Assembly (NCBI RefSeq): GCF_024521635.1
Contig: NW_026250413.1
Span: 1,116,001-1,180,000 of the forward strand
Source: Tricharina praecox
Lineage: Eukaryota
Reading direction: 5' to 3'
Length of the DNA stretch: 64,000 nt
Shown here: piece by piece, positions 771 to 62,253 of the stretch
Layout of the letters: every line of letters begins with the position of its first letter
How positions within the stretch are numbered: position 1 is the first letter of the stretch
Notes under the pieces: model-generated
Told to the model about the DNA's origin: nothing
The model's input: only the letters and a program-made list of their open reading frames with translations
The model's database searches: none
Position numbers and translations under genes: made by a program

Positions 771-3700
771 TCAGCTGCCATCCCACTCGACGCCGACGCC
801 GACGGCCCACTCGCCCTCGACGCCCGCCCCCCAGTCCGCCACCTCCTCGTCCTCCAAGAACCGCAGCACCTCCTCCTCACTGACGATCCCCGCCTCGCCA
901 TCCCGCTCGAGTCTAAACACCTCACGCGCCACTCCCTTGACCTGTTCCAGCACCTCTGTCGCACCGCCCCACACACACCCCAGCGTTTTCAACGCCCCAA
1001 CGCCGAGTCGTATGCGCTCCTTTGCCAGGAATCCTTCATCGCCGCTCAATAGCCAGGAGCATGCCGAGAGGTGCACGATGCAGGCAAGGGTTACGATGCA
1101 AGTCAGGAAGGGTGTGTGTTTTATTAGTGGCGTGGGAAGGGTAACCAGCTTTGCGATCGTGTTGGCGCTGGCGATGGTGCGTGCCGTGTGCAACGCCATG
1201 GGCTTGGTCGAGGGTGTCCATGAGGGCTGCGGCGTCACGCTGGTGTCGTCGGGGATCAATGGGAAGGCAAGGTGTGATTTTGGCCGGTTGAGGTAGATTA
1301 TTGCGCTTGACAAGTGTCAGTGAGGAAGATGGATATGGGGTAAGCGGGACATACGCATTTATAACCATGTGCGCCTGAAACAACATCTCATCCACCCTTC
1401 TCTCACGGCCTTTGACGAGCTCTTTCTTGACCTCTGGCAGATGCAAGCCCCAATTGACCAAACTGGCATCGGCGGCATCAGCGCGCGTTTCATCCGGTGT
1501 GCCCATCATGCTAACACTCAGCACCTGTCCCAGGATCCTGACAGCCTCGACACGGTACGCAAAGCTGCTAAACACCGTATTCTCGGTAGCAAAGTATCGG
1601 TCGTCGAATTCCTGCAGCGAGTGCGGTTCCGGTATCCGTCCTGCCGCATAGTCCAGCTCTTCGCACGGGAGCGGGACAGTACACTCCACGCTCCAGAGTT
1701 TGAAGTTATCTCTCTGGTGCACACCGGCCATGAGGCCGTCGACGAAATAGAGCTCCCACCAGGTGCGCCGCCACGATTCTTCCAGCACCCGTCCCGGATC
1801 CCCACCGCCTACACCCCCGCCGGTCCCGTCGGAAAACTCCTTCTGGTTCATGCCGAGCTCGAGGGCTAGCTCGACGGCGAAATCCTTCACCTGTGCGGCA
1901 CGTGCATGGTCACCTTCGCTGTGCAGGCCGATGGTGAACAGCAGTAGTGCTTGGACGGTGAAGGCGTCCTTCGCAGGAGGATGGGCGCTGCCAAACAATG
2001 CCATCTCGGCCTCGCGACAGAAATCCATCGTCGATGCGGCTTTGGCGAAGAAACTGGCAATGTACCTCATCACCGGAAGGAGGACGGTGAGCTGGTGGAC
2101 GGGTGTTTTGATTAGGTATGCGGGAGGGAGACAGAATGGGTGCGAGGCGTGGAAGTAGGCGTAATATAGCTGCATCAGGTTTGCGGTTGCGGGCGGGTCA
2201 TTGGGGAGCTCTTGTTGTGATGGGAAAAAGGTGGAATACTTGTGTTGGTTGCGCAGGGTCTCGAGGGGGTTCGTATGGGGACCGCCATTGACGGCCGACG
2301 GACTGAAGCCGCCCGTTGGTATCGGAGGTGGGGGCGTGTGATTCTTTTTGGGCTTCGCGGGGGATTGTGGTTGTGGTGGTTGCGATTGTGGTGGTGGTGG
2401 TGGTGGTGGTGGTGGTGGTGCTAATGGACGAGTCCACCGGTTAGTATTCGATAACGTCCATGACATTGGCGGTCTGCGCTGCTTGGATTTCAAGACGGCG
2501 GTGCGTCCGAGCTTTGCTATAGGAGCGGGCATGCATGTGGATGTGGATGAGGGCTTCTGCGGTCTGATCTCCAGAGAGGGCATGATGGCCGGCGGCGATA
2601 TAAGAGACGAGACAGACGTTCGATATGCAGGGCAAGAAAAAGTAAAGCGGTTGCGGAGATGACGAGGTGAGGGAACGGTCGAGGTAGGTATATCAACAAG
2701 CACCAACTGAGGTAACGCAGACAATATACTGCATGCAATCCGGAAGTACAATGCCGTGCTCTTGCTTCTGGGTATTGGATTGCCTTGCGACATATACACA
2801 TCTTATTGTGCGAGAAATATGACGTGAGGAACGCAGTTTTTATGTAACTATTTGCAGGGAGGAAGGGGGAATCCGCACTTTTACCTCCCTGGCAGCGCCG
2901 GTGGAGAAAAGGTTGCGCGCACGTGGGAGTGGGGAGAGGGAGGGAGATCGATGAAGCGAAGCGACGGGATAGGCGACAGACGAGACGCTTGGACCACGTC
3001 CACGTTGCCCAAAGATCAAAAAAGAAACATCGGTCGCCGATGAGCGAGAGGAGGCGTTACACGTCTTTTCCGCGGAGATGAGGCACCGTTGGGTAAAAGG
3101 CACCTCAACCCGTCCATTCATCCACCATCTCACTTCGACAACCCACGATCACCGTTGTCGGCGACAATGCGAGAGAGAAAGCGGAAGAGAAAGACAGGCA
3201 TCCGCGAAGAATGCCCCAGAACGGCGAATGGCTCGTGGCGACAGCTTCGCTTGGATAGGCCGAAAGGAGGAGGAATAGAGGAAGAAAACGGAGGAAGGAG
3301 GGAGGGCCAGGGCATCGGCGTCTCAACGACGGCGACCGGCGCACGGCGGACGGCGGACGACGGACGGCTATGTTCTTCCGTGGAACCACGAGAAAGAGAA
3401 GGCAGACAAACACAACCAACGCAAGGCAAGGCAGGAAAGCGAGCAAAGCTCAAAGCGCAAAGCAGCACAAAAATAATAATCGGGGAGATGCGACGGAGAA
3501 AAAAAGCAGAAATAAAGTTTTCAACTTACCACTTGAGTATCCTCCATCCGGCCCTTCAGTATCGGTTCCGGACAGTAGCGTTGTTGACTGCTCCGTTGCA
3601 TCACCATTTTTGATCTCATCGCCCTCCACCCCACCCCCACCGCCACCGCCACCAGCCTTCGTCGTCGCTGCCGCCTGCTGCTGAACTTTCTTCCGTCTTG

Positions 3701-4268
3701 TACCCTTCCACCCCCGCCGCGACTTGACGTAATTACACTCCCGCTTGTCGGCGAGGCACCGAGTGCACGCCGGCGTTCCGGCATCGCACTTGAGATGTCT
3801 TGACCGACACTCCGTGCACGCCAGTGCCACCGGCGGCGGTCCCACGAACCTCGCTATCCGCTGGTACTGCTGCTGTACCGTCGCACTGAGCCCTCCTCCG
3901 TCACCACCGCCGCTACCACCCTGTCCAGCAACGGACGACACCCCCGAGCTCCCCGGCGCTTGCTGTATCGATGTAGTATTCGCGATTCCGTTGTAGAGTT
4001 GCGCGGGCGGCGACTGCGACGAGGCATTGTATCGACGCTGGGCGTAGGCGGGTGCGCCGCCCATTCGCTGCGAGGGCCGGTAGCCGAAATCGAAGCTGTT
4101 GCTGGCCGCGCTCGAGTAGCCCGCTTCGTGGTCCGAGTAGTCCGTCAGGTTGTTGCTGGTGCCCTCGATGTCGGACGAAGACGAGTAGCCAGATAGCTGG
4201 CTGTTGGGCTGATTGTATATTCCGTAGGATGTGCCGGCATTGCCGGGCGCGGGAGGAGCGTACGACAT
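771..4268 (-). CDS. Zn(II)2Cys6 transcription factor with fungal-specific TF domain (3 exons: 4268-3530, 2420-1355, 1305-771)
   Basis: Zinc cluster ACTECRSRHLKCDAGTPACTRCLADKRECNY and middle homology region (YYAYFHASHPF; EESWRRTWWELYFVD). Introns 3529-2421 (GTAAGT..CTAAC..TAG) and 1354-1306 (GTATGT..CTGAC..AAG) both join the exons in frame. Confidence 0.9.
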
Positions 4269-7126
4269 GATTATGGCTGCGTGCCAGTTCGTGCGGCGGG
4301 GGCGTGCGAGAGAGGGTGTGGACGATGGCCGAGGAGGGAAAGAAAGAAAGAAAGAAAAAAGCGGGAGCTGAGGGGAGAGCTGTTTGTTTGTTTGTGTCCG
4401 CGGTCGTCGCCCTCGGTTCCCACAATCCCAACGATACAAGGTCGCAGATAGGATGGGTATCAGGTATGACCGATCGTCTGCAGGTGGTTCCACGCGTGGG
4501 GATGCGCTTGCAAGAACTACTTCCGGGATGCGCAGGAATAGGGTAAGTAAGTAGTTCGGTAGAGTAGGTGGAAGGGCGATGAGCTCCAGAGAAAGGGAAG
4601 GGTCCTCCAACGAAACAACCGTCGAGATATGTGGTAATGAAATGTGATTAGGGGTGTAGTAGTGGTGAAATTCTTCTTGAGCTGATCTTCGAATATCCCT
4701 TGTGAAACAGAACAGCAAAAGCAACCTTTCCACGTCCAGTGAGTCTCACTGCGACCTCTGGATCTGGGGAAGTATCGGCTTGTTTTTGTTTTTGTTTTTT
4801 TGGCTTCCGTAATCCCCTTTTTCCCCCTACTGGCCGACTGATAATCCTCCGTTGGCTAGATGGAGAGAGGGGAGAGATAGATAGTGGAAGCAGTAACTAG
4901 CAGTGGTGGTGGTAGTGTCGGTGGGCCAACAGCAATAGCAGCAGAGTGGTTAGTGGGAGGTACCTGGAGTAGGCGGCCTGGTAGCACGATGAGCACACGA
5001 GACTCGTCAACGATAAGATCGTCTCGCCTCACGGGCCCGTTCCCTCTCTCGGGATGGCGTGGGGCCTGTCCGAGTGGTGATTTTGAGGCGGGCGGCTTGA
5101 ATGATTAACACGCCTCGACGAGTAACGAGTCGACGATCGATCGCGGCCGCCGTCGATATGATAGCCCGCACTCTCCCGTGCGTGCTTGCGTGGTAGCCGG
5201 CCGGGCTGGCTGTCCGGTTGATGCTGCACCACACTTGTCAATGACCATTACGAGATAAAAACCAACCGGGCCACACCACCGCGCCGCGCCGCGTCCAACG
5301 CTGCCGCCGTTCCGAGAAGCTCGGTCGTTGACAGCTGCAGGAGCGTGTCCCTGAAACCAGCCGCCCGGCGGACCTCTCGCCTGTTCAGGGACGGGGGGAG
5401 GGGCAGCGCGGCAAGCGTGTAAAGTGGTGGGGTATGTAATGCGGGCGATAGGGTGGGGAGTATGGAGTGGGTAAGAGAAAGCAGTAGTGGTAATAACAAG
5501 CAATAGCGGCAGTAGCAAAGCAGTGGTGATGAGTTACCGTAATTGGTAGTACCGGCGGGATGAAGGAGAAGATGACGATGACGATGCTGAAGGTTTAGAG
5601 TGCAATAATAACTAGTCCCCGATACCATGGGTCGGATAGGTGGATGGATGGATGGATGAATAGATGGATCGGTGATCAAAAAATTGCTACTCCTTCTTCG
5701 TCTTCTTCTTTCGCTTCTTCGGCTTCTTTCTGACTTCTTTCAGGCTTCTTCTTTTTCCTTCTTGCCCTTGTTCTTGCCTGTTGGTCTACAGTCGGCCTTA
5801 GTTACTCTCCTCTCCGCAAGCACGTGTGCGCGACGAGCGAAGCCGACCACGATAATGCTGCTGGGGCGGCGAAAGGCGTGGATGGACGGGGTGGGAACAC
5901 GGCAATGGGGAGAGACTCGGAAGAACAATTCACTTCCACTGGAACTCCAGAAACAAAGTCAGCACGCCCGGATTTTCTTTCAGCTCAGCTCTGTAGATAA
6001 TCTGCAGAGCTGCCTAACCTCCGACGTCAAGCAGAGCAGAGTAGAGCAGAGCAGATCGAGTCGAACCATCAGCGCCGTCATAGATTCGGAACGGACCTTT
6101 GTTTTCTACTTTTCGGGTTTCGCGGCTCGTGAAGCGAGAAGAAGGCTGGAAGCGACGCCACGAACCGGATGATCCGATTGGTATGTGGCCGGGACCTGTC
6201 TCGGGTTGCTGGGAATCTCGAGCGATGACGGCGGCTGGATGCGTAAGAAAACGTGACGAGCGTGTGTATAATGCGTGAGATGGTATGGGGGGAGGGGGGG
6301 ATTGGTGGTGGTGGCGGAGAAGGAGATATGTGCTCGAGGTCGGCGTCTTTCTAGGATGCAGTTCGGCGACTAAGAGAGACAAGTGGGACGAATCCGGGGG
6401 GTAGGGACGAATGCGGGGCGGAAGGGGGGGGGATGGTACTGGTTGTGGCAGAACGGAGAGGCGGAGAGAGAGCCACACGCACACGATGGAATGGACTGTG
6501 GTGAGGAAATTCGACGAGCAGAGAGGATGGCGGGTTCGTCAGGTCGCCGAGCACACCGTTCACAGACAGGATCAGGGGTTGTCGGCGAAGAAGGGAGTTG
6601 GGGGGTGGGTGATTGTTGAATGGGGCGGTGGCAGCAGTACTATACTATAGTGCTGCTGCTGATGCTGCTGGCGGAGGTTCGGTAGAGTAGGGGATTTGGG
6701 TGGTGTAGCTGGCCAATCCGGGTGGTGGGGAAGATATGCGAAGCCTTTTCACTGAGGACCGCTTTTGATTTCTTCTTTCTGCGGATGCATTTGGCCACGG
6801 TTTGCGCGGGGGATTGATTAGGGGGGCCTTGGGGATTTCTGGGGGAGGGTGGGCGTGTCTGCCAGGCTGTCCGTCTGCGGCGGGGGTTGTGTTGTGGGAA
6901 GGCAGGTGTCAGTGAGGGGGCGGGGGGTGGAGGGGCATTGGGGCACTGGGGCAATAGGTACTCTACCGGTATCTATCTCGGCGGAGGTGGGACGACACGG
7001 TTGTTCGTCTCATGGCACTGGGCGTAGATGCTGTCTGCTGTACCCGGCTAGCGAACAGAATCAACGTTCAATGCACACCATTGCAGCACAACCTCGGTGG
7101 TGATGGTGGTGGGCGGACGGACAGAC

Positions 7127-12658: not shown

Positions 12659-14887
12659 TTAACCGACGCTAGTACCGCCATCAACGACAATCTCCTGACC
12701 GTTCGTCCACTTGGCCATCTCACTAGCAAGCCAGACGGCAGGTCCGACCACGTCGCCGGGGACACCCAGACGTCCGAAGGGGTTCTTCTTCTCGAGGCGT
12801 CCGCGGACTTCCATGTCCTCGACGACCTCCTTGACCATCTTCGTCTGGACCAACCCGGGCGAGAGGGTGTTGCAGCGGACTCCGTACTTGGCGAGCCCCT
12901 GCGCGCAGTTCCGCATCAACTCGCGGATACCCGCTGCGGTGGGCGAGAAGTGGGCCTGCTTTCCGCCCGAGTCGCCGACGGACGTGGCCGAAACACAGAT
13001 CACGCTGTAGTCGGGCCAGTCGGACTTGGGCGTGTCGACCGGGAGCTCGAGGAACTGGCGCTTGAACTGGCGCGCACAGGCTTGGACGAAGTAGAAGTTG
13101 CCGTTGAGGTTCACGTCGACGTGGCGGCGCAGGAGCTCAGGGGTCACATCGAGGAATTCACGGAGCCTGGTGGATCGTTAGTAAGAGTTGCCGATAAGGG
13201 GGGGTTCCATGCACGACTTACCAGCACATTCCCGCGTTACCGACAGCGATATCGAGGCGTCCATATGTCTCGACCGCGCGCCTCACAATGTTCTCACTCG
13301 TCCTGGGATCCGAGATGTCGCCAAAGACGATCGTACATCCCTGACCGAGCGAACGGATGTCGACACACAGCGAGACAATCTCCTCGTTGGCGGGATCGGA
13401 CTTGGTGCCCCAGTAGTGAGCGATGATGTGCGCACCCTCCTTCGCGAAGCCCAGGGCGATGGCACGCCCGATACCCCGCGACGCACCGGTGATGGCGCAG
13501 ACCTTGCCCTCGAGGAGGCGGGGCCGCAAGGGAGGCTCGCGGTTGGCGTCGGTCTCGGGTGGGGTAGGTGGTCGCACGGGTGACTCGGGTTTGTACAGGT
13601 CCATGCGATCCATCCGCTCGACGATGCCGCGGTTGTCGGGGGAGCCGTGGCGCAGCTCCAGTGCGCCGGGGGAGTTCGTGGGAGAGTTCAGTGGCGAGCC
13701 GTGGCGGTGCTCCATGTCACCCTGGCGAAGACCCTGGCCGAGACCCTGGCCAAGACCCCCGCCGAGACCCAGTCGTGGGTCGGCGTGGTCCATCCCGTGA
13801 TGTCCTCCCATCCGTGAACTCCCTTCCTGGTGGTCGGGAGTGGCTTCGATGACGTGGACCGGGTGGCGCGGAGGCGCCTCGATCTGCTGCCTGTGGGGTG
13901 GCCGTGTCGGGGATGCGCTCCTGCTGTCGGGGCCGGGAGAGGACTCGTGCTGCTTGGTCTTGCGCTTCCCCCGCTGCTTGTTCTCCGAGATGGAGAGCAC
14001 GATCTGACCGGTGCCGTGCTCGGCGTTGATCGAGATCTGGGTCTTTGTCTCCTGGAACTCGGAGACCGGCTCGTTCGGGGGTGTAGGTGCAGCCGGAGGA
14101 AGGTGCACTGCCGAGTGGGAGTGGGGGATCATGGCAGTGGGAGCGGTGGACTCTGTCTCGGAACCGGAATCGATGCTCTGGGGTGGCATGGAGTAGGATC
14201 GCGAGGGAGGACCGTGTCGGCGCGAGGCCCGGTCGTCGACTGCCCACCGGTCGATGAAGGCGTTCTTGAGGTGGTCGTAAGACATAGCGTCGGTTTTACC
14301 TGATGAGTTCTATTAGTGGGGGAGAACCTTTGACATGGGAGAAGCGGGGAACAAACAGTCATGGCAGTTGATATCGTCGCAGGCGGGGTTGTCTCTTATC
14401 CAGGCATCATCTACGGGATGTCAGAACATGTTGTATGCGGTGGAGCTGGAAGTACTTACTCAAATCAAGCAGCCATCGGTGAGGTGTGAACCTGTTTGGC
14501 CACGCATTGGGATCGTTGGAATCGATCGTTTTGACGAACAGCGACCTGAGAATGACTTGCGTCAGCAAGGCTGGTTGTACACATCACACATCTGCGAGGC
14601 TGCAACAAGCAGGCGGGCGGGCATGCGGGGAAAGCGGGCAGGCGGACAAGCCAGCCAACACTGGACCGTCCTCGTCACAGGTCCGACCTTGCGCAAAGCA
14701 CAGCCACACACCCCGCAAGCCCGCAACCACACCCGCACAGACGCAACGCACAAGAAACTCACCATTTGCCAGCATCTGTAGCTCTCGGGTATGCGACACC
14801 GCACAGACGCTCGAATTTTCGCAGATGCTTCCAGGCATCGGACCGCGGGGTGAACTTTAAGTTCTGGAGTTCGGTAGCCGCATCCAT
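12659..14887 (-). CDS. Fusion protein of ~598 aa: Gag-capsid-like N-terminal domain, disordered linker, and catalytically degenerate SDR related to fungal L-rhamnose-1-dehydrogenase (exons 14887-14763, 14545-14460, 14299-13222, 13166-12659)
   Basis: Three canonical introns (GTGAGT..CTGAC..CAG; GTAAGT..CTAAT..CAG; GTAAGT..CTAAC..CAG) join in one frame of 1797 nt. SDR motifs TGASRGIG, GDIS, NAG, VNLNG, GVRCNTLSPG and VDGG are present. The YxxxK motif reads FSPTA. Confidence refers to the gene model and SDR call; the Gag-like call is less certain. Confidence 0.85.
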
Positions 14888-15080: not shown

Positions 15081-16229
15081 ATATACGCTCGACGATCCGG
15101 AGAACGACGTCTATAAGGGCAGCGGAGGTGAGTAAGGGAGATCTAGTTTGGCGGATGGTAATGGGAATCTATAGTGGAGAGGATGGAAGAAGGGCAGGAG
15201 GAAACAAGCCACCCGAACTTTATAGGGAGTTCGCGGTAGTGGGAGGGGGTGAGGTGAGGTTAGGAGGAGACGGAGGAGCGGGAGAGCACCGGATGAGATG
15301 AGGGAGGGGGGGGGGTGGGAGGAAATTAAATAAGAGAAGAAAAAAAACTGCACAGCGACAGCGATGCGTGGTCACTGGCTGACAGGCAGAGTCACTCACC
15401 CCGAGGGCAAACGAATGAGTGGGCCAGAAGCTCCAACGAAACGCTGGCGGAGGGCGGTGTAGCGGGTCGGCGGCGGTGGTTGACGAGGGAGAGGTGGTGG
15501 TTGGTGATGTGTTGTTGCTATGGGAGAGATTCCGAGCCTTGCGGGGTAGTAGGGAGCAGTATCCTTGCTGCGGGTCGAAACCTGTTACATGCGAAATGGG
15601 GCCCGCTCTACTCTAGTGGGACCCTTCGGCCCATGTACTGGCTGGGTGGGTGCGGACAGCGATGGCAGCGCGCACTCGGTCTGGCCTCAGGTGAGATCAG
15701 GACGAGGCGGAGAAGAATTTTAGAAACAGTGGCGAAGCAGGAGAAGGGGGCGGAGAGGATGATGGCAATGACGGAGGAGGGGGAGGGGTGAGGGGGCGAG
15801 AGGAGAGCGGGACCGCACCACGCCATTAAAAGAGGAGGGAGAGGAGAGCCACGGGCAAATCGATCAAAGCAATATCGGTCATCCGTCGACGTCAACCGGC
15901 GTGCAAAGTGAGACAGCCAGTCCCGGCAGGCAAGACCAGCCAGCCATGGCCAGCAGAGTGAGGAGATTCCGATCAGCCCCCGCAGCAAAGCAGAGCTGCT
16001 GTTGCGGCGGCAGCAGCTCCAAAGCGGTCCAGAGTGGTTAGAGTAGGTGAGTAAGTCCGGTACTTACTGCTGCGGGCGGGGGGAAAAAGCTCACGGTTTC
16101 GACATTAACAGATCGAGCAGATTTTTCGATTCGCCGCAGCCGGGCGATATTCCGCAACGGAAAAAGTTGATTTTCCAGCAGCAATTGCGAATCGAGCAGC
16201 CAGTCAAGTCGGCCAGCCAGCGAGCAGCC

Positions 16230-18367: not shown

Positions 18368-19351
18368 TCACGTGCACCACTCCCCCTCCCCCACCGCCGC
18401 GTCCCCCATCAAGATCCTCTCAAACACCTCCACCCCCTCCCTCCCCAGCGCCGTCGCCACTCCCACCGCGCCCGCGCCCACCGTCAGCATCCTAACCATC
18501 CCGTCCCTATCCCCCACGCCTCCCACACCTATCACCACCACGCCCCCCAACCCCCTCTCATCCAGGCCCCTCCTAAGACTGTCCACATTCCCAACAGCAA
18601 GCCAATGAATCGCCTCCCCGGCCAGCCCTCCCACTCCGGTCCCGGCGGGTGACGACAGCGTGGGCTGCCAGATCCTTTTCCCGCCATCGACGCTGAGCGA
18701 CGGCGGCGCGGACAGGTGCAGCGCGCCGCCGAGCGAGTTCGTGGCGGTAATGAACGACAGCGCCGCCGGGTACCGCGCCACTACGTCGAGTACCGCGTCG
18801 AACTGCGCGGGGTATGTGAACGGCGGGAGCTTGATGCCCACTGGAACTCCCATCTGCTCCGGTAGTAGCTGCAGATACGACCCCAGCCCCTCGGCTGAGT
18901 ACGCGGGCGGCGGGGCGCCCGGGATGTTAGGGCAGGAGAGGTTTATCTCCGCGAACAAGCGCAGGTTGTGGGTAGCGGCGAACGTGGCGATCTCGTGGAC
19001 GCCGGCCGCTACCGCGTCTGCGCCGCCGGTGATAGAGACGATAAACGGCTTCGTCTGCGGTGCGCCAGTGCCGCGCACTATCTCGCGGATCCACGAGAGG
19101 TACGAGGTCAGTGGAGAGGGCGAGTAGCCGTATGTGTTCACGCTGCTGGTGGAGAAGAGGTGGTGCTGGTGGATTCGTGGGTCGTGCGGGAATGGTGTGG
19201 GGAGGAGGGAGGTGCGTGTTGTTACGCCGCCGGTGAAGGGCGAGAGGTAGAGGGAGAGAAGGTCCGCGGATGTGCTCGCCCAGGGGCTGGCGCTGTTTAG
19301 GAGGGCGGGCTGGAGGGTTATGCGCGGTGAGCGCGGCGGCGGTGAAGGCAT
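18368..19351 (-). CDS. Class-1A dihydroorotate dehydrogenase-like FMN enzyme (Ura1-like; possibly dihydrouracil oxidase), intronless
   Basis: Motifs LLNSASPW, VTTRTS, NTYGYS, PFIVSITG, EINLSCPN (active-site Cys loop), GIKLPP, TATNSLG, GGLAG, IGVGGV and GAGAVGVATAL. There is no N-terminal membrane or mitochondrial extension. Confidence 0.88.
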   Translation of the reverse strand: MPSPPPRSPRITLQPALLNSASPWASTSADLLSLYLSPFTGGVTTRTSLLPTPFPHDPRIHQHHLFSTSSVNTYGYSPSPLTSYLSWIREIVRGTGAPQTKPFIVSITGGADAVAAGVHEIATFAATHNLRLFAEINLSCPNIPGAPPPAYSAEGLGSYLQLLPEQMGVPVGIKLPPFTYPAQFDAVLDVVARYPAALSFITATNSLGGALHLSAPPSLSVDGGKRIWQPTLSSPAGTGVGGLAGEAIHWLAVGNVDSLRRGLDERGLGGVVVIGVGGVGDRDGMVRMLTVGAGAVGVATALGREGVEVFERILMGDAAVGEGEWCT

Positions 19352-20413
19352 GGGGGCTGCGTTTTCGTCGAGGTAGTGGGGATGTTTGCACGTGAAATCG
19401 TGAGGTCTAAGGTCGTGAGCTCCCTCGTTGTAAAATCAAAAACAGTGCGGGATACACGCCGGTTATAAACGATCTCGGATCAATCCAGCACAGCCCAAAA
19501 CGTTGCATCGAGCGGAGCGGAGCTTCACCCGGAGACGAGATCGCATCTCGACTGCATCTCGACTGCCTATCCCATCCCAGGCCAGGCCAGCTAGACATCT
19601 CATGATCATAAGGTGAGCGCGCCCAGCGTTGTAGGTATCTTGGACCTTGGATCTTGTATCCTGGAAACGAGAAGGAGAACGAGAAGGAGAAGGAGGAGGA
19701 GAAGGTGAGCGATCGCGATAACGTTTGGTCTTGGTCATTGCTATCTAGAGTAGTATCTACCGATAAACCGATAAGGCCTACACCGCCTCCACGCCGCCTC
19801 ATGTTTCATGACGTTGGCATTGGCATTCCACTGCCTGCGAAAAAAGCAAAGGATGTCTCACCGTGGATGATGATGATGACTGCCGGGAGGACGGTATGTA
19901 CCAGGGCAAAACTTGGATTGATGGGGGCGAAGTGTATGCGGGATGCCGATGTCGCACGGACGGGAGTTGTCGTCTGCCACCAGAGATGAGCACATGACAC
20001 ATGTGGGATAGATGGAGGATCAGATAAGATATGCTGGAGGAGGAGGGGCTATCCGGACTAGCCAGATTGAGTGACACCTCACGTTGCACGTTGGCAGCGG
20101 AGGAGAGTCATACCGTACTCAATGGCTCTCGGAAGTTGAATACAACCTCACCTTCTCCCTCATCCCTCATTCGCCGCTCCCTCCAAGGCTACATACGCCA
20201 CCATTGTCCAGCCACCAACGATGGGATAGTCAGGTACAGTCTTACAGGATTGCGTGCTCTGTCGTCTGGGTGGCCCCATCCCACCACTACCTAACAATTG
20301 TCGAACTGGGCGCTCGTTCGAGTCATACTGCCCGCGCTATCCCGGGACCGACCCTTACTCTATCTACATATAACCTCTCGGGCAGCGGCCGCCCACCTCC
20401 CTTATACTCAATC

Positions 20414-40039: not shown

Positions 40040-41609
40040 TAAGTGAATTAAATCCAAGCTCAGAAAAAGTCCTCATCGCCATCATCATCAACAGCACAAT
40101 CCTCCTCCGTCTCCAAGCTCAGAAAAAGTCCTCATCGCCATCATCATCAACAGCACAATCCTCCTCCGTCTCCAAGCTCGTATCCCGTCCATTGAGTACT
40201 TCGTTTGATTCCGACTCGCTCTCGAATGCGATAGGAGTGTGTTCGTCCCACTATTTTGTCATTAGCCGTAAGTTCACGTTCGTCGGAATTCCTGCAGCAG
40301 ATTGAGAGTACTAACGATGTCTAAGAGTGCGCCAAGGAAAAGTTTCGGAAGCTAGACGATGTCAGTGCCAACTGTATGGAATCTTAAATCAATCACATTG
40401 AGGGCGGACGGTGGTTCTTTACCTCACGATATTCCATTTATCGGCTGGCTCTTGCATCTTGTCGAGGCTTCCGCTGGCTGATGAAAGCTGGCGTTAACGA
40501 TTGATAGCCGAAACGATGCCGTTCTAATCATATGGAAACGGGAGGGAACGTACGCATGCAATCGATATATTCGCCCAGTTCCTTATCGTCGTCGAGATTT
40601 TTGAGGAGCTCTATTGCTTTCGTATCTGTCCCGATCATAGCGAATTGGTACGCCACAGCTATACTCATCGACGACAGTGGTCAGTCAGCACGTCAGGGTG
40701 ATCGAGGACGAAGCTTGCGGCTAACCTTGCGGTCCTTTGGGGCCATATTTTCCCCGTAGCTCCAGCGCCTTTTCCTTCATGACTTTGCGCAGAAGCCACT
40801 GTGGTTCGCCTTCGATCTGTAAGACCGTGCGCGACGGCATCAGCAGAGCCGTACCGACCACAGAGTTGTTAAGGAGAGGGTTAGTCTACCTCGCCGTCTG
40901 TCAGGATGATCACTAGCAGCAGCCTCTTCATTTCGCCCACGACGGCGTGGTTTCTCAGAACCTTGTCGCGTAATTCCGTTCCGATTTTCGTCAAACCTCG
41001 GAACTCGTTTTGGCGACGATTTCATCGACCTTTGTCGGTCCGACCTCTCTGAACGACAAGTTGGAGTTCAAAAACTTGACGGGGACTATCCTGCCGATCT
41101 GAGCGACCAGTCTGTACACCGAAGCGATGGACTTGAGAGTTTTCTTGAGCGTCTCAATCTGCTCGCCGTTGTCTTCAATCCGCATGCTGATAATATTGTC
41201 TGCAAAGCATCAGATAGATCCTGGAAAAAAACGGCATTTCCGCTGCGGCCAAGGGAAAGGCAAACGTACCGACCAACAGGACGACGTCGTACAGGGCCAG
41301 CAGCGACAACTGAATCGCAGTTTCCTTCATGCAACCATGTTGCATTATTTTCCCCACCATCTCAGCCGCTTTCACGGACGCCTCGGCGATTTTGGGATCT
41401 CCTTCGAGTTTGTCGGGGAAGAAGCGTGCGATTCCACTCTTTTCACCTTTCAAAAGGTCATCCCAACACTGTATGAGCATACCAGGTGTCAGAGGTTTCT
41501 GTCCCCCATCGGGCTTTTGCGAAGGCTTCACCGTCCCCGTCGCCGTTGCCGTTGTCTCTCACATCACCTTCGTGATTATTTCCTCCGGTGTGGGCAAAGA
41601 GAGAGGCAT
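40040..41609 (-). pseudogene. von Willebrand factor A (vWA) domain gene, disrupted
   Basis: Fungal vWA motifs LALYDVVLLVDNIISM, FRGLTKIGTELRDKVL, LLVIILTDGE and VAYQFAMIGTD. There is an in-frame TGA at 41561-41559, a 1-nt frameshift near 41010, and a 59-bp duplication at the 3' end. The 3' boundary is approximate. Confidence 0.75.
40053..40179. repeat. Perfect 59-bp tandem duplication (2.15 copies)
   Basis: TCCAAGCTCAGAAAAAGTCCTCATCGCC...CCTCCTCCGTC at 40053 and 40112, with a partial third copy at 40171. Confidence 0.97.
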
Positions 41610-42259
41610 TTCGAGGCTGTTCGCGTCAAGCGGGAGATGTCGGGGCACTGAATCGTCGGAAACACTCGTTTTTCTAGGGAATGATTGAGAGCAGCTCAGT
41701 TATAACAAGAGACGGTCCACCGACCGCGCGGAGTTCCTCCTCCGGAAAATGAAGTGTTGTCGACTTGTAGTTTGAATCCGCGGCCTTCCGTTGGTGAAGT
41801 GATTGAATTCGAGGTGCAAGGAGGGAGAAGGAATCCGTCGCCTTGAAACACTTGTCTGTTGTTCTTTGGGTGGGAACTCTGTTGACCCCGCACCAGCTCT
41901 GTGAAAAGAGGGGGTCTGGTGCTGCACATGCTCGGTGACGAACCAAAGGGTGCTCTCGATCCAATACGCCGGTCGTGGGCACTGCCTTGAATGGAGGTTC
42001 TCAATTGAAGTTCGACTAAAAGGGGAAACCTGATTGAGATGCGTAGGCTCAGCAGGCGCAGAGATAATCCACCTCGTATGCATACCGCGCACACCAACCC
42101 GAAGGAGGCCCTTGTGCTTCTGGAAGCACAATGCAAGCTAGTAGATTCATCACAGAACTACAGTGTGCCAGTTATATACGTATGTGGTGGATACAGAGGT
42201 TCATAGGCAAATTCCTACCTGCTCCCTGTTGACACTCAGTGGCTGACCTTTCACACAGA

Positions 42260-43486
42260 ACAAAACCGAAGAGCTTTCCCAAGCGGTCGAAGACCTAATT
42301 TTGGCCCAAAAGAAGCAGATGGGGGAGCTCAACGCGGAGTTGGCATCCCAGGGCAAGATGATGTCAATTTTCACCTACGTCACTTTGCTTTTCCTTCCAC
42401 TTTCATTTATGGCCGAGGTTTGTAGGCAGAACCTTTCCATTGGTTCATAGTAGTATCCACGCCACTGACCTCGGCACCTATTATTTTGCTTTACCATTTG
42501 CGCAACTGAAGGATATGGACGTGAAGATATTCTGGCTCATCACCGGCATTGTCACGGTCCTAATTGGATTCGTGGCTGGATACAGCGTCTTGTTGAGCCG
42601 ATACTAGTTCCGCGAGCTGGTGCGGGCTATTGAAGATATGCGTCGGCCGATGACCAGGCAAGATACGATTGCACTGCACCTCTATTCCAAGGGGCTTCCG
42701 AGGTACACGATCAGGGCGGTCGGCCGGGACGGCCAGGTTACTCCCTCCGCCTGCAACTATCTCAAGTGACCGGCCCTTGCGAAAGGAGTCCCAACAGAGT
42801 GGCACGTCGGCATCGAAAGCAACGCGCATCCCAAAAGTGCCGGTATATTTCGCTACGACCATGCTAGGGGCGTCCTTCTCCTCGATTACATCGACCCGTA
42901 CGGATACATGTACTACGCCCATGTCGAGTGGGATTACCCCGAGGATGCGAATCGACTCGTGTGGAAGAAAACGCGGCTCCCGGCGGAAAAGGCCAGATAC
43001 CGATACCAGACCCGCTTCGAAGTTACGAGTACGGACGAAAAAACGGAAAATCCACGCCTGCCGAAAAGGAAAAGGGAGTTTCTGGTCTGGAGGACGGCTT
43101 TAGCCCACAAGACGTGGCAAAGTCAACCACGGTGGGATATAGACCACGACAATACGGGAACCATGGAGACTTTCGAAATCTATGCCGGGGTCATGTCGAT
43201 AGAAGACAGATCGAAAAGCCCGGCGGCACTCATTGCGGTGACCACATCATTACAACCGCGGTTATCCACGAATGTGCTGGGAGAAGACGAGCCGAAAAGC
43301 CCAGTGGCTCAGCCACCACCAAGTGCAGCGATGACAAAGATAGCAGCACGGCTATCCGGGATGGTTGAAGGCATCCAATGGAGGCGACGAATGCACGAAC
43401 TGAAATTTCCGATAACACATGATCCAGCGAGTGCTGACGCACGAGAATACTTCAAATTGGAGTTACTGTCGGTGCGTGGGGGTTAA
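42260..43486 (+). pseudogene. Probable pseudogene: CorA-like two-TM segment fused to an unknown domain paralogous to 48551-49626
   Basis: The spliced frame reads MSIFTYVTLLFLPLSFMAE / DMDVKIFWLITGIVTVLIGFVAGYSVLLSRY*FRELVRAIEDMRRPMT. In-frame stops are TAG at 42605-42607 and TGA at 42767-42769. The 5' exons were not resolved. Confidence 0.65.
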
Positions 43487-46400
43487 GGCAGCAAGTACAT
43501 AACTATCTACCTAGTAGGGCTCAGGCAAGATCCTATTTCGTGTCGGAAAGGGTGCATCATTCGGCGATGGATGGCACCAAGAACCAACATAGGAAGGATG
43601 GCAGAGGTGAACCGTCAGGGATAACGCGTAACTAATGATATGCCATCAGCCTGGAGGGTGTTTGGAGGCGATATGGAAGGGGAATGTGTATCTGACTCAG
43701 ACTGAGGGGGGGGAAATTGTTGGAACGTTTCCTTGACCAATGGGTTTTTTTCCTGAGTAATCAATGACGTTGTCTTGTTGATTCTTTACTTGTGCTTTGT
43801 CTTTTCGAACGTTCGTGTTTCATTCATTCCATCATACCTCTCCCGCTCTAGTTGTTTCTCCTTCCTGCTACGGCTTGGCTAACACTACGTGTGGGTCGGG
43901 CTTTTTCCTGCGCAATATTTTCCTTCAGTTTCATATGCTTTTCATAGCGATGGTGGAGGTTGAGCGACGTTATTTCGGGAGGGACGAGTTGTAAAAGGAG
44001 GGGGTTCGGAGGGGCACCGGACACGCTTCCTGTGTCGCTTTCTGGCGCATTGGTTTGGCACGTCTTGTCTATTTTCTTTTGCATCATACACCGATCGCGT
44101 GCGACCCATCCAGATCATGGCAGTACAGCCGCGGGGGCAGACGAGTGAGAAACGACCGCAGTACAGTGAGGGGTGGTGAGGTGTGCTGACTCTGCGGTAA
44201 CCCGACGACGTGACTTCTTCCCCCCGACATGATTCCGCGGAGACCACCCGAATGGTTCGCTAGCCTGATCCTGCGGCCGGAAAGTTCTGGAAACTTTCAC
44301 ATGTCTGAGTTTGGGTGCACCGCAGTTTTTGTCAACGTCTTGGCACCAGCCATGCAGGTGTCGCTCAGAGTGTTATGGTCTGGTCGATCACAGATGACCG
44401 CATGTGAGCGCTGCGGTTGGTGTCACCGGCTCACGTGGGTACTGACCGCCGGCGGTGGCAGTCACTTGTTTCACTCGTCTGGAATGCCAAAGAACACTTG
44501 CTAGTTGTTTCCAGCTTCTCTCGAGTCTCGGCCATGACAAATTATTTTGGTACAGTGAGCGGTACATACCGGCATGTACCTACCATAATTGAGGCTCAGA
44601 GGAGCGCCCGGTTGAGCCTCGAAGATCGTGTACCTTGTATGGACGTGTTCCCCACAAGCGGAAATCGAAACTGTAGGCAACGATGTGTGCCGATTACGTT
44701 TTATTCGAAGTCTATGTAATTGTATGCAACAAGCTCGAGGACTAAAACCTTCGGCTCCTGCCGCTAAGTTAAAAAGGCTCACGTGCTAAAGTAGTTAAAC
44801 CTCAACCTTATCCCAGCCGTAGCTTCGCCACAATATCTCCTGCGTGGCTTGGGGCGCCGTGGCTGTGCGGCCCGGCGGCTAGCGCACTGCCCTGGAGTAG
44901 GCATATGCATGCTAGTCCGGCGATGGCCGGGCCCAGACGCGCCAATAAATGCAGACTTCATACTCTACATGCATAAGTTGTTCGACAGCTGAATGCAGGA
45001 CGGCTCATTGCCATCACGCCAGGTGTGATGGCGGTTCTGTATCTCCACGGGGACGCGTTCCAATTGACGAGGAGAATGGAAATCCGTGAGCGATGTGTGT
45101 GATGGCGAACAGGGAATATGGCTGGGACGGGGAGCGGAAACCTGGGCGTCGAGATATTGCCTACGGTACCGGTATGTACTTACCTAGGTCCACTACGTTG
45201 GGAATAAAGTGCTTATCTAGTATTTACCTACATATTTAAGAAAGAGATTATTGCCGCGCAGACTTCCAGAGTATCTTCGTAGACTACCGTATGAGGAGGA
45301 ATCATATCGGAACACAATCTACAGTCAATCACACGCGTGTTGGCAATGACCACAACGCTTGTGGCTGCAGATCGAGCGTGGTCAGCCCAGATCTGATGGA
45401 TCGCTAACGCAATGGCTTCGGTCCGTAGCGCCACGGAGGTCAGTGGACAATCAGTCGAAACTGACGACGATGACGAAGAGCCACCGGGCCACCCATGTTG
45501 AAGTTCAATTGTGATTGACCTGATCCGTCATTGGTCAATGAAGTTATTTCACTGAGGAAGCAGAAGAAGGAAGGAAGGCTTCATCGGACGCCCCTTCGAA
45601 TCACACCTTCACCCGACAACGTTCATCTGATATTTAGCCGGGGAGAATCGTGCCGTTGCAATCGGCAAGGGCGGCTGACGGCCAGCTTATACTATTAAGC
45701 TTGAGGGAACTGGATAAAAGCGTGCCAGGACGACAGGCCGCGAGTTCAGATGCCGGCGATGAATAGCGACTCCAAGTGATGGATAGAGACAAGTAGACAC
45801 CTGTGCGAGACAAGCTTTTAGCTCATGATTTGTTTTGACGCTGCGTCACTGAAGATACATATCGTGCCGATTCGGTGTGCGAACCCGAAACAATCCATGA
45901 TTTGCCACTTTGCGGCTGTGATGCGATGCGGGCACTGGGAGTCTGGGAGTAACGTCGCTTAGTACGCACGGTCTGGGTGTTGCTGTGGGGTAGATAAGTG
46001 GTTAGCGTTCGTTTCCCTGTTGGTGCCGACACCCTACACCGCCCGTGCGTAGACCATGTCCCTGCCCGTGCGTTCGCTAAGCCACTGCCCATGCGGCCCA
46101 TCCAGTCAGGGAACCATCGCGAGCGACCAGCCCCGCTTCACCATCCACACTCCACGCTTCCACCTCAATGGAAACGATACTGGTATTGTCCCTTCCGCTT
46201 TCGCTCTGTGTTTTCGAGCTCACCGTCTTCAGCTCGGAACACACCACTCAATTCGCTCGCTGCGCCCGCCGCGGGCTCTGAATATTCTTTGACGCCGTAA
46301 GCCACACCCCCCCTAATCGTCTCCGCGGGCAACCCGTTCCTCGCATACGTACTTACTTGCCCGAATTACCTATGCACTTCCGCGGCACACTTACCTCTCT

Positions 46401-48550
46401 CGGCGTCAGATTACATCCGTCTCTGCGTGCAATTGCCACTCACTGTTTCGGGGATGCCGTTGCCGGAGCCGTTTCGGGAAACGCTACTTGACGAATACCT
46501 TCCCACGGAGGCGACGACTCCCACTGCTTGGTCGCACGCGGTACACACGCACTTGGCATGGGTGGCCGAGGGCAGGGAATCTTCTGCATCGCTGGGCCTC
46601 GATTCATCGAACGTCACGATGTATACAAATAGTATCCCCAGTTATAGGGGAGCGAACAACAGAGCTTCCACGTGCTATGCAGCCAGGAGACACCCATCTT
46701 GGGCGAGCACCCATTCTCCCACTGCACGATGAAGTAGTGCACAGCGATGCTGCTGCAGAGGAAACTGCTGTATGCCCCTGCCTCCAGAGTATTCACCCCC
46801 CTGGGGGGCAGAGGAAGGGATGATGTGAGCTCATGAATGCACGGCCTGGCTCGTCCGGTGGTGGTGGTGGTAGTTATTATGTGGACAAGCAGAGGATCTA
46901 AGAAGCATGTACAATCCACAGCAAACCGCAGTCGGTCCCAAGGGGGACCTCCGTAAGGCCGAGGCTCCCACAACGAGTTCCCGAGCTGCTTTACGTTGAA
47001 ATGATCTTCAATATGCTGACGTGTGTTCATTTCAGCTACAGAAGACGTTCGCCCTTGATACGCTGTTTGCTTAGCTCCACTCATGGCTCAGCCTGACACT
47101 CCGTGCAACTCGGTTTGCTTCGAACATCTGCGCAATCTGTCATACCGACGCTTCGCCCAGGACAACGCACCTGTCGGTGTGCAAGTGACGAACAGGAGGG
47201 CGTTGCCTTCCTGCCGTGAAGGATACGTGTTAAGAAGCATTGGAGAAGAAGAAGCAATGACTGCTGGCAATACGTACTGCATACCTCCGGCGCCGTTTGC
47301 AAGCTCGGCAGGAGGATGATATTGTCACCGCAGTATAGGTTCCGGGAGTCTTTCACGCACTCTAAGCTCGGATGGGGCTGTCGATCGGTGGGCTCTCCCG
47401 TGAGGCTTACTTCAGAGGTTGATATTCTTTCTCCAACGATTGGTGGCCGGTATTTACGTACGTCTACGTTTTAAGATACACCACACTCTTCCCAACACCC
47501 TTGGATGCGCTGCGACGACTGGGGGAGTATTATGACGGGGGTCCTCTTTGTGAAAGATGAGGAGGAGGACGAGGGGGCGGTAGAGGCGCCGAGAGGATAG
47601 ATGAACCGGAGAGGTTGGACTTTTGACGTGCCTAACGGTCCACTTCCCTTCTACGTGGTATTCCGACTATGTATCTCGGCTGGGAGACGTTCTTTTAGGA
47701 CATCGCAAACACCCAACGCAACGTATATCTCTAATTTCGATATCACCTATAACACAGACAACTGATCGCGCAGCTTCGTTTCTTGGTGTGGTCGCTTTGT
47801 AGCCGGTGGTGAAGTTCGGACGAAGAAGGCAGTTTGATGGGCCACGTTGGTGGTAGAGGCCGAGTGGGAGAAGATGTCAGTTGAGTCTAGTAGAACAATG
47901 GGTGTGAAAATTTGAAGCACAAGCTGGGTGATTTTGGTTCGCCATTGCCGTAACAATGAATTCTATTTCCAAGAGCCACACACTGGCATCGATCCTATCA
48001 CATCGCGTAATGTGAGGGCGCGAACATTTGGCCAACTCAGTAGTTCCAGGCCTTGTTCCGAAGAGCCTGAGGTGTGGATGACCGTAGTACATACCGACTG
48101 AACCCGGCTGTGAGCCTCGACCACAAAATGAATCCATGGGCGCACATCTACCTGCGTCTACCAATGCGTTTTTAGTCTGTTTGCAGGAAAAAACTCAGGC
48201 GCATATCTACGAGGCTGGAGATCCTCTCCTGTTGTCCTCGCCCTTACCGCCCTGCCCCGCTAACACGTAGTTCGCATGGTCTGCGGTTGCCGTGTGGGTG
48301 GGTTGGCCAGGTTGGCCAGGTTCATCTGAGGTCTCGCCTTCAGACTCACGGCGAGGCTGCATCGAAACCCCGCGGAGACAGGACAAAGGAGGTATAGTCT
48401 TGCGTTGGAGGTTGGGCGGCGAGGCTAATTCATTGAGTGACAACACGCAGCAGCAGAGCTTTGACAGCCTCCAATACAGCTCGATGAGTGTTTAAAAAGG
48501 AACGCGGCTGGAAAATTCGCAAGTATTCACAATCAATCTAACACGCAACG

Positions 48551-49626
48551 ATGTCGGCCCATTCATCAATCGTCTCTTACTTTGAGCAAAACGTTGAGTT
48601 CACCTACGCGGCGAGGCCGCGTGCGAACGGCACGGATGCGGATCCAGACACAACCATCCTCTTTCCGAAGGACACGCTCGAATGTTCCATCTCCAAAGAT
48701 TCCTACCGTGGTTCTACATACGTGGAGGATAGAGAGAGATCTTCAATTTATTCCGCATGCAGCTTATCTAAACACGTGGATGAGGTATGTAGCAAGGAAC
48801 TCCTACCATCGGCACAAGAGCGAGCTTCGGCAGCTGACCTCCCATGCAGAAAAAAACAGCCGAGCAGCATACCGTCGCGGCCGGGGCTGGGGCCGTCGGG
48901 CTAAATTTCGCGCGCGAGCTGATCCGCGCTATGCGCCGACCAATGACCGGACCGGACACTACCACGCAGCGCCTGTATCTCGGCAGCCTCCGGCAGTGCC
49001 GGATCCAGGCGATCCAGACGACACCCGATCCGGCAGGCTCGATCCCCGACCCGCGAGAAGTATTTCTCGCGGGGCCGTCCGAGTTCGTCAGCGGAGTCCC
49101 CACCGATGACCGGCCCTTCTTCGAGCGACTTCGGAATCCCGAAAATGGCAGTATATTCCGCTACGACGACGCCCGCGGCCTGCTACTCCTCGACCACATT
49201 GACCCCTGCGGGTACTTGTACTACGCGTGCATCCCGCACGGCCATCGCACGCACACGGACCGGCTGCAGTGGAAGCACACACGGCTGCCGACCGAGACGA
49301 CCAAGCGCCACCAGGCCCGCTTCGACGTCGCGAGGATCGATGAAATCCCCCCCGGTCCGCACTCGGCGCGGGTGAATCGCGAGTACCTAGTGTGCAGGAC
49401 CGCCTCGGAGCGGAAGGAATCGCGAACACTGCCCCGCTGGATTGTAGATCGAGAGGATACCGGTACTGGACTCGTTCGGGCATACTTCGTCATTCACGCG
49501 GTGGATGGACATGTCTCGGTAGAAAGAATCCCGGCAGCCACGGATGCGACGGCGCTGCCGGGTGTACCGCCGGAGACACCAGTTGGCTCGGCATTATTCA
49601 GATTGCAGCTGCTTGCGGTATGTTGA
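48551..49626 (+). CDS. Hypothetical protein of unknown family (exons 48551-48784, 48850-49626; ~336 aa)
   Basis: Phase-0 intron GTATGT..CTGAC..CAG. It shares MRRPMT, GVPT, IFRYD.ARG.LLLD.IDP.GY.YYA, RL.WK.TRLP, RE.LV.RTA and F.L.LL.V with the copy at 42.6-43.5 kb. Confidence 0.75.
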
Positions 49627-53889: not shown

Positions 53890-54516
53890 GGTGGGGATGG
53901 GGAAAATGTAGGTGTGGAAAAGTGAAGATTGTAGATGGTGGTTATGGGGGGAAAGTGGTCAAAAGGGTGTGCGATGTAGAAAAAAAGAAGAAGAGAGGAG
54001 GGGTGGGGATGGGTTCTTTTATACTTGGATGCGCTATCGGCAAAAACCTGTTTTCGACCTCAACAGTCAACTAGCCGTTGCAGCCCTTCATGTTCTGTCA
54101 CTCGCCCTCGAAAAAAAATATTTCGCCGACAGTCAGATGACTGAGGCCGCGTCGGGCAAGATCTCCATACCCTAGACAGGCAGTAAACAATACACCAATC
54201 TTCACTCTGATGGCAGCAATATTCTCCTGCTATTTGCGGACAGTATCATGATCTTTTTTAGCTTTTTTAAATTATGAATTCTTTATAACTCATATTGATC
54301 ATGGCAGTATACACGCACCGTTGGTGTTTTGTCTCTGCTATCAAAATCGACCCCGCTTAGTTCGCAGCAGCTCTCTGCACGCATCCTTCACCCCCTCTCT
54401 CTGTATCCCGCGCTTGCCCTGGCCTTTACTGAAACTCTGGAGACCATACCAAGCAAAGAATGCAAGTAAAAAACCCCACGTATCATGATTACCAGAAGCT
54501 GAAAATCCGATAATCC

Positions 54517-62214: not shown

Positions 62215-62253
62215 CTTTGTTGCGCCGCCCATCTCTCCACCTAGCGAAGAACC

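Follow-up and report, generated by a model that had tools for sequence, protein, structure and literature searches.

A retroelement capsid-like domain fused to an L-rhamnose dehydrogenase-derived domain with altered catalytic residues in Tricharina praecox and related fungi

We examined a 64,000-nucleotide (nt) stretch of the Tricharina praecox genome (contig NW_026250413.1, positions 1,116,001 to 1,180,000), referred to here as the window; all coordinates are positions within it. On its minus strand lies a gene whose five coding exons, once spliced, encode a protein of 616 amino acids (aa) with no internal stop, identical to the annotated protein P0022 at 616/616 positions (Table 1). A sequence-only reading of this stretch had described an intact short-chain dehydrogenase/reductase (SDR) resembling rhamnose dehydrogenase. 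The identity of the domain stands, but it covers only residues 350-616, the last 267 of the protein, and the 349 residues in front of it had been overlooked; the frame upstream of the SDR remains open for another 256 codons, with splice signals farther up. Likewise, the frame is free of stops in the spliced product, but only once a 55-nt intron (13221-13167) has been taken out.

The fusion is seen directly in RNA. Contigs from runs X1 and X2, which come from two studies, contain all four coding joints as well as a 289-nt intron in the 5' untranslated region (UTR), and a single 2,191-nt contig covers all five exons; these runs were classed as RNA by automatic guess, and their contigs skip exactly the introns. 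Two of the joints were seen in X3, a run recorded as RNA, and joints were examined in four of the six listed runs. Exon 1 has one match in the genome, indicating a single-copy gene, and the linker and the start of the SDR lie within one exon, exon 4.

Table 1. Features of the fusion gene and of the protein domains it encodes (window positions).
Feature	Position	Strand	Evidence
5' UTR intron, 289 nt	15111..15399	-	joint in RNA contigs X1 and X2, GT..AG ends
Coding exon 1, ATG at 14887, helices 1-3 of capsid-like domain	14763..14887	-	RNA joints; one genome match
Coding exon 2, 86 nt	14460..14545	-	RNA joints; equal length in PCON_05476
Coding exon 3, 54 nt	14357..14410	-	RNA joints; equal length in PCON_05476
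Coding exon 4: last capsid-like helix, disordered linker, first SDR half	13222..14299	-	RNA joints
Coding exon 5: second SDR half with altered triad, stop 12661-12659	12659..13166	-	RNA joints
Residues 1-108, five-helix domain, fold like retroelement capsid C-terminal domain	14241..14887	-	model, fold searches, Atlas
Introns inside capsid-like domain	14762-14546, 14459-14411, 14356-14300	-	positions and phases common to 7/7 modelled related loci
C-x4-C-x2-C loop, residues 81-89, before last helix; putative metal site	14298..14381	-	Cys columns
Residues 172-204, beta-hairpin-like motif then Lys/Arg cluster	13953..14051	-	conservation; low-confidence strands in full-length model
LRA1-derived SDR domain, residues 350-616	12659..13517	-	Pfam, NCBIfam, PDB matches
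Residues 378-435, strand B to helix D, candidate partner-binding face	13260..13433	-	variable in LRA1, nearly fixed in fusion family
Altered catalytic positions Ala508, Phe521, Ala525	12935..12988	-	spliced translation, alignments

The C-terminal domain is a classical SDR by its motifs and its profile scores. The glycine-rich TGxxxGIG motif, GDIS, NAG and VNLNG that the sequence-only reading had listed are all present in the spliced product, and Pfam adh_short_C2 scores 95.6 bits with exon 5 alone and 146.9 bits with protein P0003 (cut-off 27). Its best match in the Protein Data Bank (PDB) is the L-rhamnose 1-dehydrogenase of A. vinelandii (7B81, E 4.6e-53); after the structures of L-rhamnose 1-dehydrogenase (7B81, 7DO5-7), the next-best sequence follows at E 1.6e-29. 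The best NCBIfam match is RhamDHLra1 (NF053807), at 227 bits against a cut-off of 400; the genome's own paralogue with an intact triad also stays below that cut-off, at 364 bits.

Loss of both Tyr and Lys abolishes catalysis in classical SDRs. In the fusion protein, Ala508 (GCC, 12988-12986), Phe521 (TTC, 12949-12947) and Ala525 (GCA, 12937-12935) align to the catalytic Ser, Tyr and Lys, both of 7B81 and of the genome's own LRA1, which bears out the three substitutions called from the raw sequence. LRA enzymes use a catalytic tetrad, N-S-Y-K (PMC12028159); here the Asn is kept and Ser, Tyr and Lys are Ala, Phe and Ala. Because stand-alone LRA1-like comparators keep S-Y-K in 113/113 cases, this pattern is not a matter of chance. 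Editing cannot repair it either, in agreement with the sequence-only reading: A-to-G changes cannot convert GCC, TTC and GCA to Ser, Tyr and Lys codons, and the X1 and X2 contigs show no alternative letter over the three codons.

The substitutions extend to the presumed sugar site, whose columns are assigned a binding role from their position. Three columns nearly fixed in LRA1 as Phe, Asn and Asp (110, 113 and 111 of 114 rows) read Leu, Val and Val in P0022; Gln and His columns are kept. Across the family of related fusion proteins the sugar-site columns drift and the cofactor columns hold: among 25 family rows, the Ser-Arg of the glycine motif is present in 24, the next His in 25, Asp in 25 and the Asn of NAG in 24. 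Arg in the glycine motif marks acceptance of NADP, and Thr marks the NAD-only fungal enzymes (PMC12028159). We infer that the SDR domain of the fusion protein is catalytically inactive, and it probably still binds its cofactor.

An LRA1 with an intact triad lies elsewhere in the genome, a point that the sequence-only reading had proposed to check. The second-best of 21 genome matches (L002, E 8.7e-29) carries S-Y-K and the Thr motif, and it sits between a gene for L-rhamnonate dehydratase (483 bits, over the cut-off) and a gene for a DHDPS-like aldolase. By its residues and its neighbours, a working LRA1 is kept in a rhamnose cluster. We also observed that the intact-triad LRA1 frame (L052:5942-8317, minus strand, contig C28 of G000) has no in-frame ATG before the SDR. 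The L-rhamnonate dehydratase upstream of it ends in a stop codon that coincides in part with a GT donor, and splicing that donor to a nearby acceptor is predicted to join LRA3 and LRA1 in one frame, as a fusion some 716-719 aa long; PCON_10247 of Pyronema is annotated as a 716-aa protein with an enolase fold and an SDR. Such a spliced LRA3-LRA1 fusion may be the sole form in which LRA1 is produced.

The fusion protein of T. praecox is one of many. Among 1,050 candidates, a search for longer relatives picked out 18 proteins with lengths of 462-661 aa; those with names belong to Trichophaea, Pyronema, Geopyxis, Morchella, Tuber and Ascodesmis, and cluster members extend the list to Wilcoxina, Sphaerosporella, Choiromyces and Discina. 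A profile of the N-terminal domain (N-domain) run over 1.84 billion representatives gave 19 matches, including Kalaharituber (fused), Geoglossum (fused), Peziza (N-part) and Trichoglossum (partial). The Geoglossum member has the N-domain fused to a much eroded SDR without the residues of the glycine-rich motif, and the Kalaharituber and Peziza members carry long low-complexity extensions ahead of the N-domain. Matches did not reach Orbiliomycetes or the large Leotiomyceta classes in these word-based and single-pass profile searches, which can miss eroded members such as P0077.

In a tree of 46 SDR rows (20 from the family, the genome's LRA1, three from basidiomycetes and 22 of the other 110 LRA1-like sequences), the fusion family forms one side of a 100/99 branch. 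Within it, Pezizaceae, Tuber/Morchella/Discina and Pyronemataceae/Ascodesmis are supported groups, in an order like that of the host families; P0077 and P0093 are long branches whose placement is unsure. The tree is unrooted and holds one ascomycete LRA1, so that neither a fungal nor a bacterial LRA1 source can be assigned to the SDR. The dihydroorotate dehydrogenase-like neighbour of the gene is kept in related loci and in Pyronema. Taken together, these comparisons describe a single-copy family, inherited vertically across Pezizales, with relatives in Geoglossomycetes.

The syntenic neighbour in the window is an intron-less open reading frame (ORF; 18368-19435, minus strand; Pfam DHO_dh), annotated in Pyronema as the fumarate-using class. 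Class 1A-like dihydroorotate dehydrogenase genes have a patchy distribution among fungi, and some of them encode dihydrouracil oxidases.

The catalytic residues have been lost to different degrees across the family. In 35 family rows, which are sequences rather than events and include some near-duplicates as well as three proteins for which fusion is not demonstrated (P0089, P0090 and P0093), the triplet reads AFA in 10, SYA in 8, AYA in 7, SFA in 3 and SYS in 2, with GWA, SFQ, PAR, SNK and SYK once each. Lys is gone in 33/35 and all three residues in 12/35; Tyr is kept in 18/35 and replaced by Phe in 14/35. The Lys is absent from 0/113 stand-alone LRA1 rows. Orthologues thus share the loss of Lys, but F-x3-A, whose conservation the sequence-only reading had proposed to check, characterises the Pyronemataceae-like branch alone. 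Tree and triplets together imply that Lys was lost no fewer than two times, or was lost once and later regained, and by the graded series of triplets catalytic loss in the family proceeded stepwise.

We next consider selection, using gene models that cover 7 of 12 true related loci and the ratio of nonsynonymous to synonymous change (dN/dS) by the Nei-Gojobori method. Between the window gene and its counterpart at locus L039, dN/dS is 0.034 overall (600 codons, dS 0.80): 0.044 in the N-domain, 0.068 in the linker, and 0.007 and 0.018 in the two SDR halves. The altered catalytic loop itself has 0 replacement and 11 silent changes. Three Tuber-like pairs gave 0.027-0.055; four deeper pairs were saturated and were excluded from this use. 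Judged by these ratios, the gene is under purifying selection and is not decaying. Random decay had already been doubted from the intact frame, and the low dN/dS, the spliced and expressed mRNA and the loss of Lys throughout most of the family uphold that doubt; the contrary picture, a private allele with dN/dS near 1 among orthologues that retain YxxxK, does not hold.

What selection holds has shifted. Between the Pyronemataceae-like and the Tuber/Morchella-like branches (56 pairs, 73% identity overall), strand B to helix C is 87% identical, strand C to helix D 90% and the catalytic segment 46%. In LRA1 pairs matched for divergence (759/6,328, from a comparison set that is mostly bacterial or unnamed), the same three segments are 41%, 47% and 91% identical. 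In these alignments the conservation profile is inverted relative to LRA1, with helices C-D held and the catalytic segment loose. Helices C and D face outward in SDR tetramers; if they do so here, selection now holds a partner-binding surface.

The N-domain resembles the C-terminal domain (CTD) of retroelement capsids. A model of residues 1-112, built from nine sequences, has five helices and a mean confidence (pLDDT) of 86.7. Its best match among 48,161 solved chains is residues 96-186 of the Drosophila Copia capsid (Z 10.1, root-mean-square deviation 3.1, 86 aligned); residues 91-186 of that capsid are its CTD (PMC11835246). The PEG10 CTD (Z 8.3), the Arc C-lobe (7.4), Drt2 (7.2, rank 4) and the CTD of MLV (7.1) follow, and ranks 1-37 are all retroelement capsids, the first unrelated row having Z 4.2. 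The top Foldseek rows are Copia (E 0.46, probability 0.91) and ORF1 of a fungal metavirus (E 0.51). A language-model feature search of the Atlas pointed to Retrotrans_gag clusters with 0.86 for the domain of P0022 and 0.91 for that of Kalaharituber (24/30 matches). Like domesticated gag genes (Crtg), the gene occurs in several host families, is under purifying selection, is expressed and is a fixed single copy. The three introns within the domain are fixed in 7/7 modelled loci, indicating that it has long been part of a host gene. On balance, a capsid origin is highly probable, and the source was most likely the Gag of a long terminal repeat (LTR) retrotransposon.

Only one domain of a Gag is present: it starts at Met1 and is followed by low-confidence coil up to the SDR, and, having no capsid N-terminal domain (NTD), it should not build particles alone. 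Gags that do form particles, such as those of Arc, PEG10, PNMA2 and Copia, carry an NTD and a CTD in tandem, usually together with a CCHC knuckle. The three Cys of the C-x4-C-x2-C loop are invariant in 9/9 rows, and the loop is missing from the Kalaharituber and Geoglossomycete members.

Several observations beside the N-domain and the gene model deserve a record. The SDR intron (13222/13166 junction; loci L043-L049) lies at differing positions in three modelled branches, although its position in L043/L044 may be a modelling error; the three N-domain introns are fixed by contrast. The database protein P0080 has the Cys loop and the last helix of the N-domain but a different downstream sequence. 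The window also holds a retrotransposon gag ORF (62245-62970, plus strand; PF03732, DUF4939), one of 109 genome matches, with no sequence similarity to the N-domain of the fusion protein.

The linker between the two domains is about 240 residues long, mostly disordered, and modelled as low-confidence coil. It contains conserved islands: a Pro-rich stretch, the hairpin-like motif with its basic cluster, and a short V-I-E-A strand. The hairpin-like motif is found in 24/25 rows, Geoglossomycetes included, each with 6-8 Lys or Arg in the next 20 residues; 13% of linker 20-mers have 6 or more. The cluster resembles a nuclear localization signal or a nucleic-acid-binding element, either being a candidate role. 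The Foldseek list for the full-length model consists of SDRs only.

To gauge expression we turned to Pyronema, where PCON_05476 was taken as the orthologue by its 1,770-nt coding sequence, its 54- and 86-nt exons and its shared neighbour. Its normalised counts are 41,040-46,755 in six samples (dark, sexual and vegetative), with ratios of 0.96-0.99, and are the highest among the 26 rows of the page of Table S2 on which it appears (PMC3778014). In the same table beta-tubulin has 79,630-100,596, two septins 15,357-49,364 and the LRA3/LRA1 model 3,021-4,583 (PMC3778014). PCON_05476 is therefore expressed constitutively, at about half the counts of beta-tubulin, a pattern that fits a housekeeping or structural role and not an enzyme induced by sugar or a factor confined to development.

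The reading that best accounts for these results, to which we give a probability of roughly 0.6, is that the protein is a non-catalytic, multivalent scaffold made of a domesticated Gag capsid domain and a pseudo-dehydrogenase. A lone capsid CTD, most likely derived from the Gag of an LTR retrotransposon, would have been joined through about 240 residues to a duplicate of LRA1, which, with a working LRA1 elsewhere, would have shed its catalytic and sugar-binding residues stepwise. The SDR would oligomerise and probably still hold NAD(P)(H), presenting its newly fixed helix C-D surface to a conserved partner, and the several capsid-like domains, on flexible arms, would bind to one another or to a protein of the host, as the capsid-derived SCAN domain does in vertebrate transcription factors. 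In a stronger form, which we consider rather unlikely, capsid-CTD dimer contacts between the arms of oligomeric dead-dehydrogenase hubs would build a constitutive lattice or condensate, its assembly perhaps tuned by NAD(P)(H) or metal, that would have arisen before Pezizomycetes and Geoglossomycetes diverged.

A number of results weigh against the scaffold. The family is not uniformly dead by its residues: P0090 of Peziza echinospora keeps S-Y-K, P0093 keeps Lys, and Tyr persists in about half of the rows. The full-length model is poor (pLDDT 51) and has no contacts between the domains. The Pyronema counts are mRNA counts from one species, compared with hand-picked genes. Other results touch the capsid resemblance. 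Because the Z score of 10.1 is lower than about 13, the value under which helical bundles call for caution, the assignment to the capsid CTD fold leans on the enrichment of capsids among the matches; Foldseek agrees by rank and not by significance (E 0.46 and worse), and the Atlas gag rows share few features (96-113/256). Pfam gag families (PF03732, PF14223, PF19259) were absent from the nine N-domain rows and from all 15 profile matches scanned out of 18, a PDB sequence search with the N-domain gave no match, and two family profiles were run on six-frame translations of 43 resident gag loci, comprising 23/23 copia-type and 20/109 gypsy-type matches, and scored them no better than reversed or control loci. 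With a trimmed profile several gypsy loci scored best on their gag stretch; these scores were still negative and were discounted as evidence.

These negative profile tests are what favours convergence, in which the N-domain is a host helical bundle that merely looks like a capsid CTD and the protein is a pseudo-SDR with a novel domain; small helical bundles can also reach middling Z scores by chance, and the model rests on 9 sequences. Convergence concerns origin and is compatible with any proposed function. We regard it as quite unlikely, since 37 successive capsid rows out of 48,161 chains cover the whole domain and the language-model search, which makes no use of a predicted structure, leads to the same family from either of two divergent members. 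If the domain is a capsid CTD, it might act as a restriction factor, the SDR oligomer displaying CTDs that poison retrotransposon particle assembly in the manner of Ty1 p22 or Drt2. A lone CTD without an NTD is the anatomy of Drt2 and p18m (PMC13709905), Drt2 is among the top fold matches, the genome has many gag copies and expression is constitutive. However, Drt2 shares 91.5% identity with its target and is specific to a subfamily (PMC13709905), and near identity to a blocked Gag, as in Drt2 or p22, was found in none of the 43 resident gag loci compared; purifying selection on the N-domain is strong (0-0.044), with no sign of an arms race. Restriction is accordingly very improbable.

The SDR half raises questions of its own. 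It may be an NmrA-like nuclear regulator that reads NAD(P)+/NAD(P)H and signals to a transcription factor, with the capsid-like domain as a dimer module and the basic cluster as an import signal; this would be one particular form of the scaffold, with the sensing of a ligand at its centre. NmrA and other atypical SDR regulators use a Rossmann fold without catalytic Tyr or Lys for binding. The kept cofactor columns, with Ser-Arg as in an NADP-accepting bacterial enzyme (PMC12028159), agree with this, as do the widespread basic cluster and the use of SCAN, a module derived from a capsid CTD, in transcription factors (PMC8321522). On the other side, the NmrA family was not found at E <= 0.1 in a Pfam scan of 6/6 proteins, so that the likeness to NmrA drawn by the sequence-only reading holds as an analogy only. 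The Lys that is missing here ordinarily contributes to binding of the nicotinamide ribose as well, the Geoglossum member has no glycine-rich motif, and an mRNA abundance near the level of tubulin is high for a regulator; we find this role fairly unlikely. Alternatively, the domain may still be a catalyst whose chemistry or substrate has changed, for example one that transfers hydride to an activated double bond without the Tyr acid/base. It retains the cofactor site, the tetrad Asn and the His preceding the Tyr position, the altered loop has become fixed again in the branch of the window, and the canonical residues surviving in P0090 and P0093 fit as well. Nevertheless, the nine non-canonical triplets and the variable length of the loop resemble relaxation and not a new shared active site, and the catalytic segment is the least conserved across branches; continued catalysis is decidedly unlikely. 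Finally, the gene could be a decaying pseudogene, a private allele or an annotation artefact that joins two genes, given that P0089 of Tirmania and P0090 of Peziza are annotated as SDR-only or partial. RNA contigs that run continuously over five exons, a linker and SDR start that share an exon, fused orthologues in many genera and a dN/dS far below 1 leave this with a vanishingly small probability; at this locus it was rejected by the RNA contigs and dN/dS.

Elsewhere in the window, two ORFs on the plus strand (42770-43486 and 48838-49626) look alike by eye and share a YDxARGxLLLDxIDPxGYxYYA-like stretch; they match no Pfam family, lie in the lower-GC right half and are possibly a diverged repeat or a pair of paralogues. 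A repetitive ORF of 700 codons rich in Ala, Gln, Glu and Arg (51856-53958, minus strand) also matches no Pfam family. At 1036-4745 on the minus strand, an ORF with a Zn2Cys6 cluster and one with a fungal transcription-factor domain are probably exons of one transcription factor gene.

In print, a full-text search found no fusion of a capsid domain with a pseudoenzyme, most subscription papers being beyond its reach. The same search found nothing on domesticated gag capsids in Pezizomycetes or on rhamnose short-chain dehydrogenase pseudoenzymes in fungi, and no mention of PCON_05476 or of five family accessions; on capsid domestication in fungi found by Foldseek, it gave a match only for totivirus genes. 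The fusion of an ancient capsid-like domain with a pseudo-dehydrogenase is apparently undescribed. It looks like a further capsid co-option invisible to sequence searches and retained in truffles, morels, Pyronemataceae and earth tongues alike. It also offers, within one orthologous family, a graded loss (S-Y-K, S/A-Y-A, A-F-A, fully eroded) while selection shifts away from the active site and onto a different surface, so that the emergence of a pseudoenzyme can be tested directly; PCON_05476 provides a handle for genetics. If the lattice were real, a cell structure would have been built from a fragment of a retrotransposon capsid and a metabolic enzyme.

Compared with known systems, the SDR is closest to LRA1/RHA1/LraA (7B81, 7DO5-7, NF053807), its best match in both sequence and fold, sharing the glycine-rich motif, GD, NAG, the tetrad Asn and the His before Tyr; it differs in being about 42% identical, with Ser, Tyr and Lys replaced and sugar-site columns changed, behind 349 extra residues, outside the rhamnose cluster and with an inverted conservation profile. 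Unlike NmrA, it is a classical, LRA1-type SDR with an added capsid-like domain and linker. Wang and Han (2021) reported three fungal gag co-options, Crtg12-14, and the main text of that paper does not contain "Pezizo", "Tuber" or "dehydrogenase" (PMC8321522). These too are single-copy gag-derived genes under purifying selection, and Crtg14 is fused to a host gene, PEX14, with an intron in the gag part; however, their hosts are Dothideomycetes and Tremellomycetes, and they were discovered through sequence similarity (PMC8321522). Ty1 p22/p18m and Drt2 share the isolated five-helix capsid CTD, Drt2 being likewise domesticated and under purifying selection, but Drt2 is young, unfused and nearly identical to its target (PMC13709905), whereas the domain described here is old, intron-bearing, fused and unlike the resident gags. 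No SCAN structure was among the 50 rows of the N-domain fold search. Even so, vertebrate SCAN is the parallel for a lone Gag capsid CTD kept at great age in a host protein (PMC8321522); SCAN is joined to zinc fingers or KRAB and much duplicated, whereas the fusion gene is fungal, single-copy and joined to a pseudo-enzyme.

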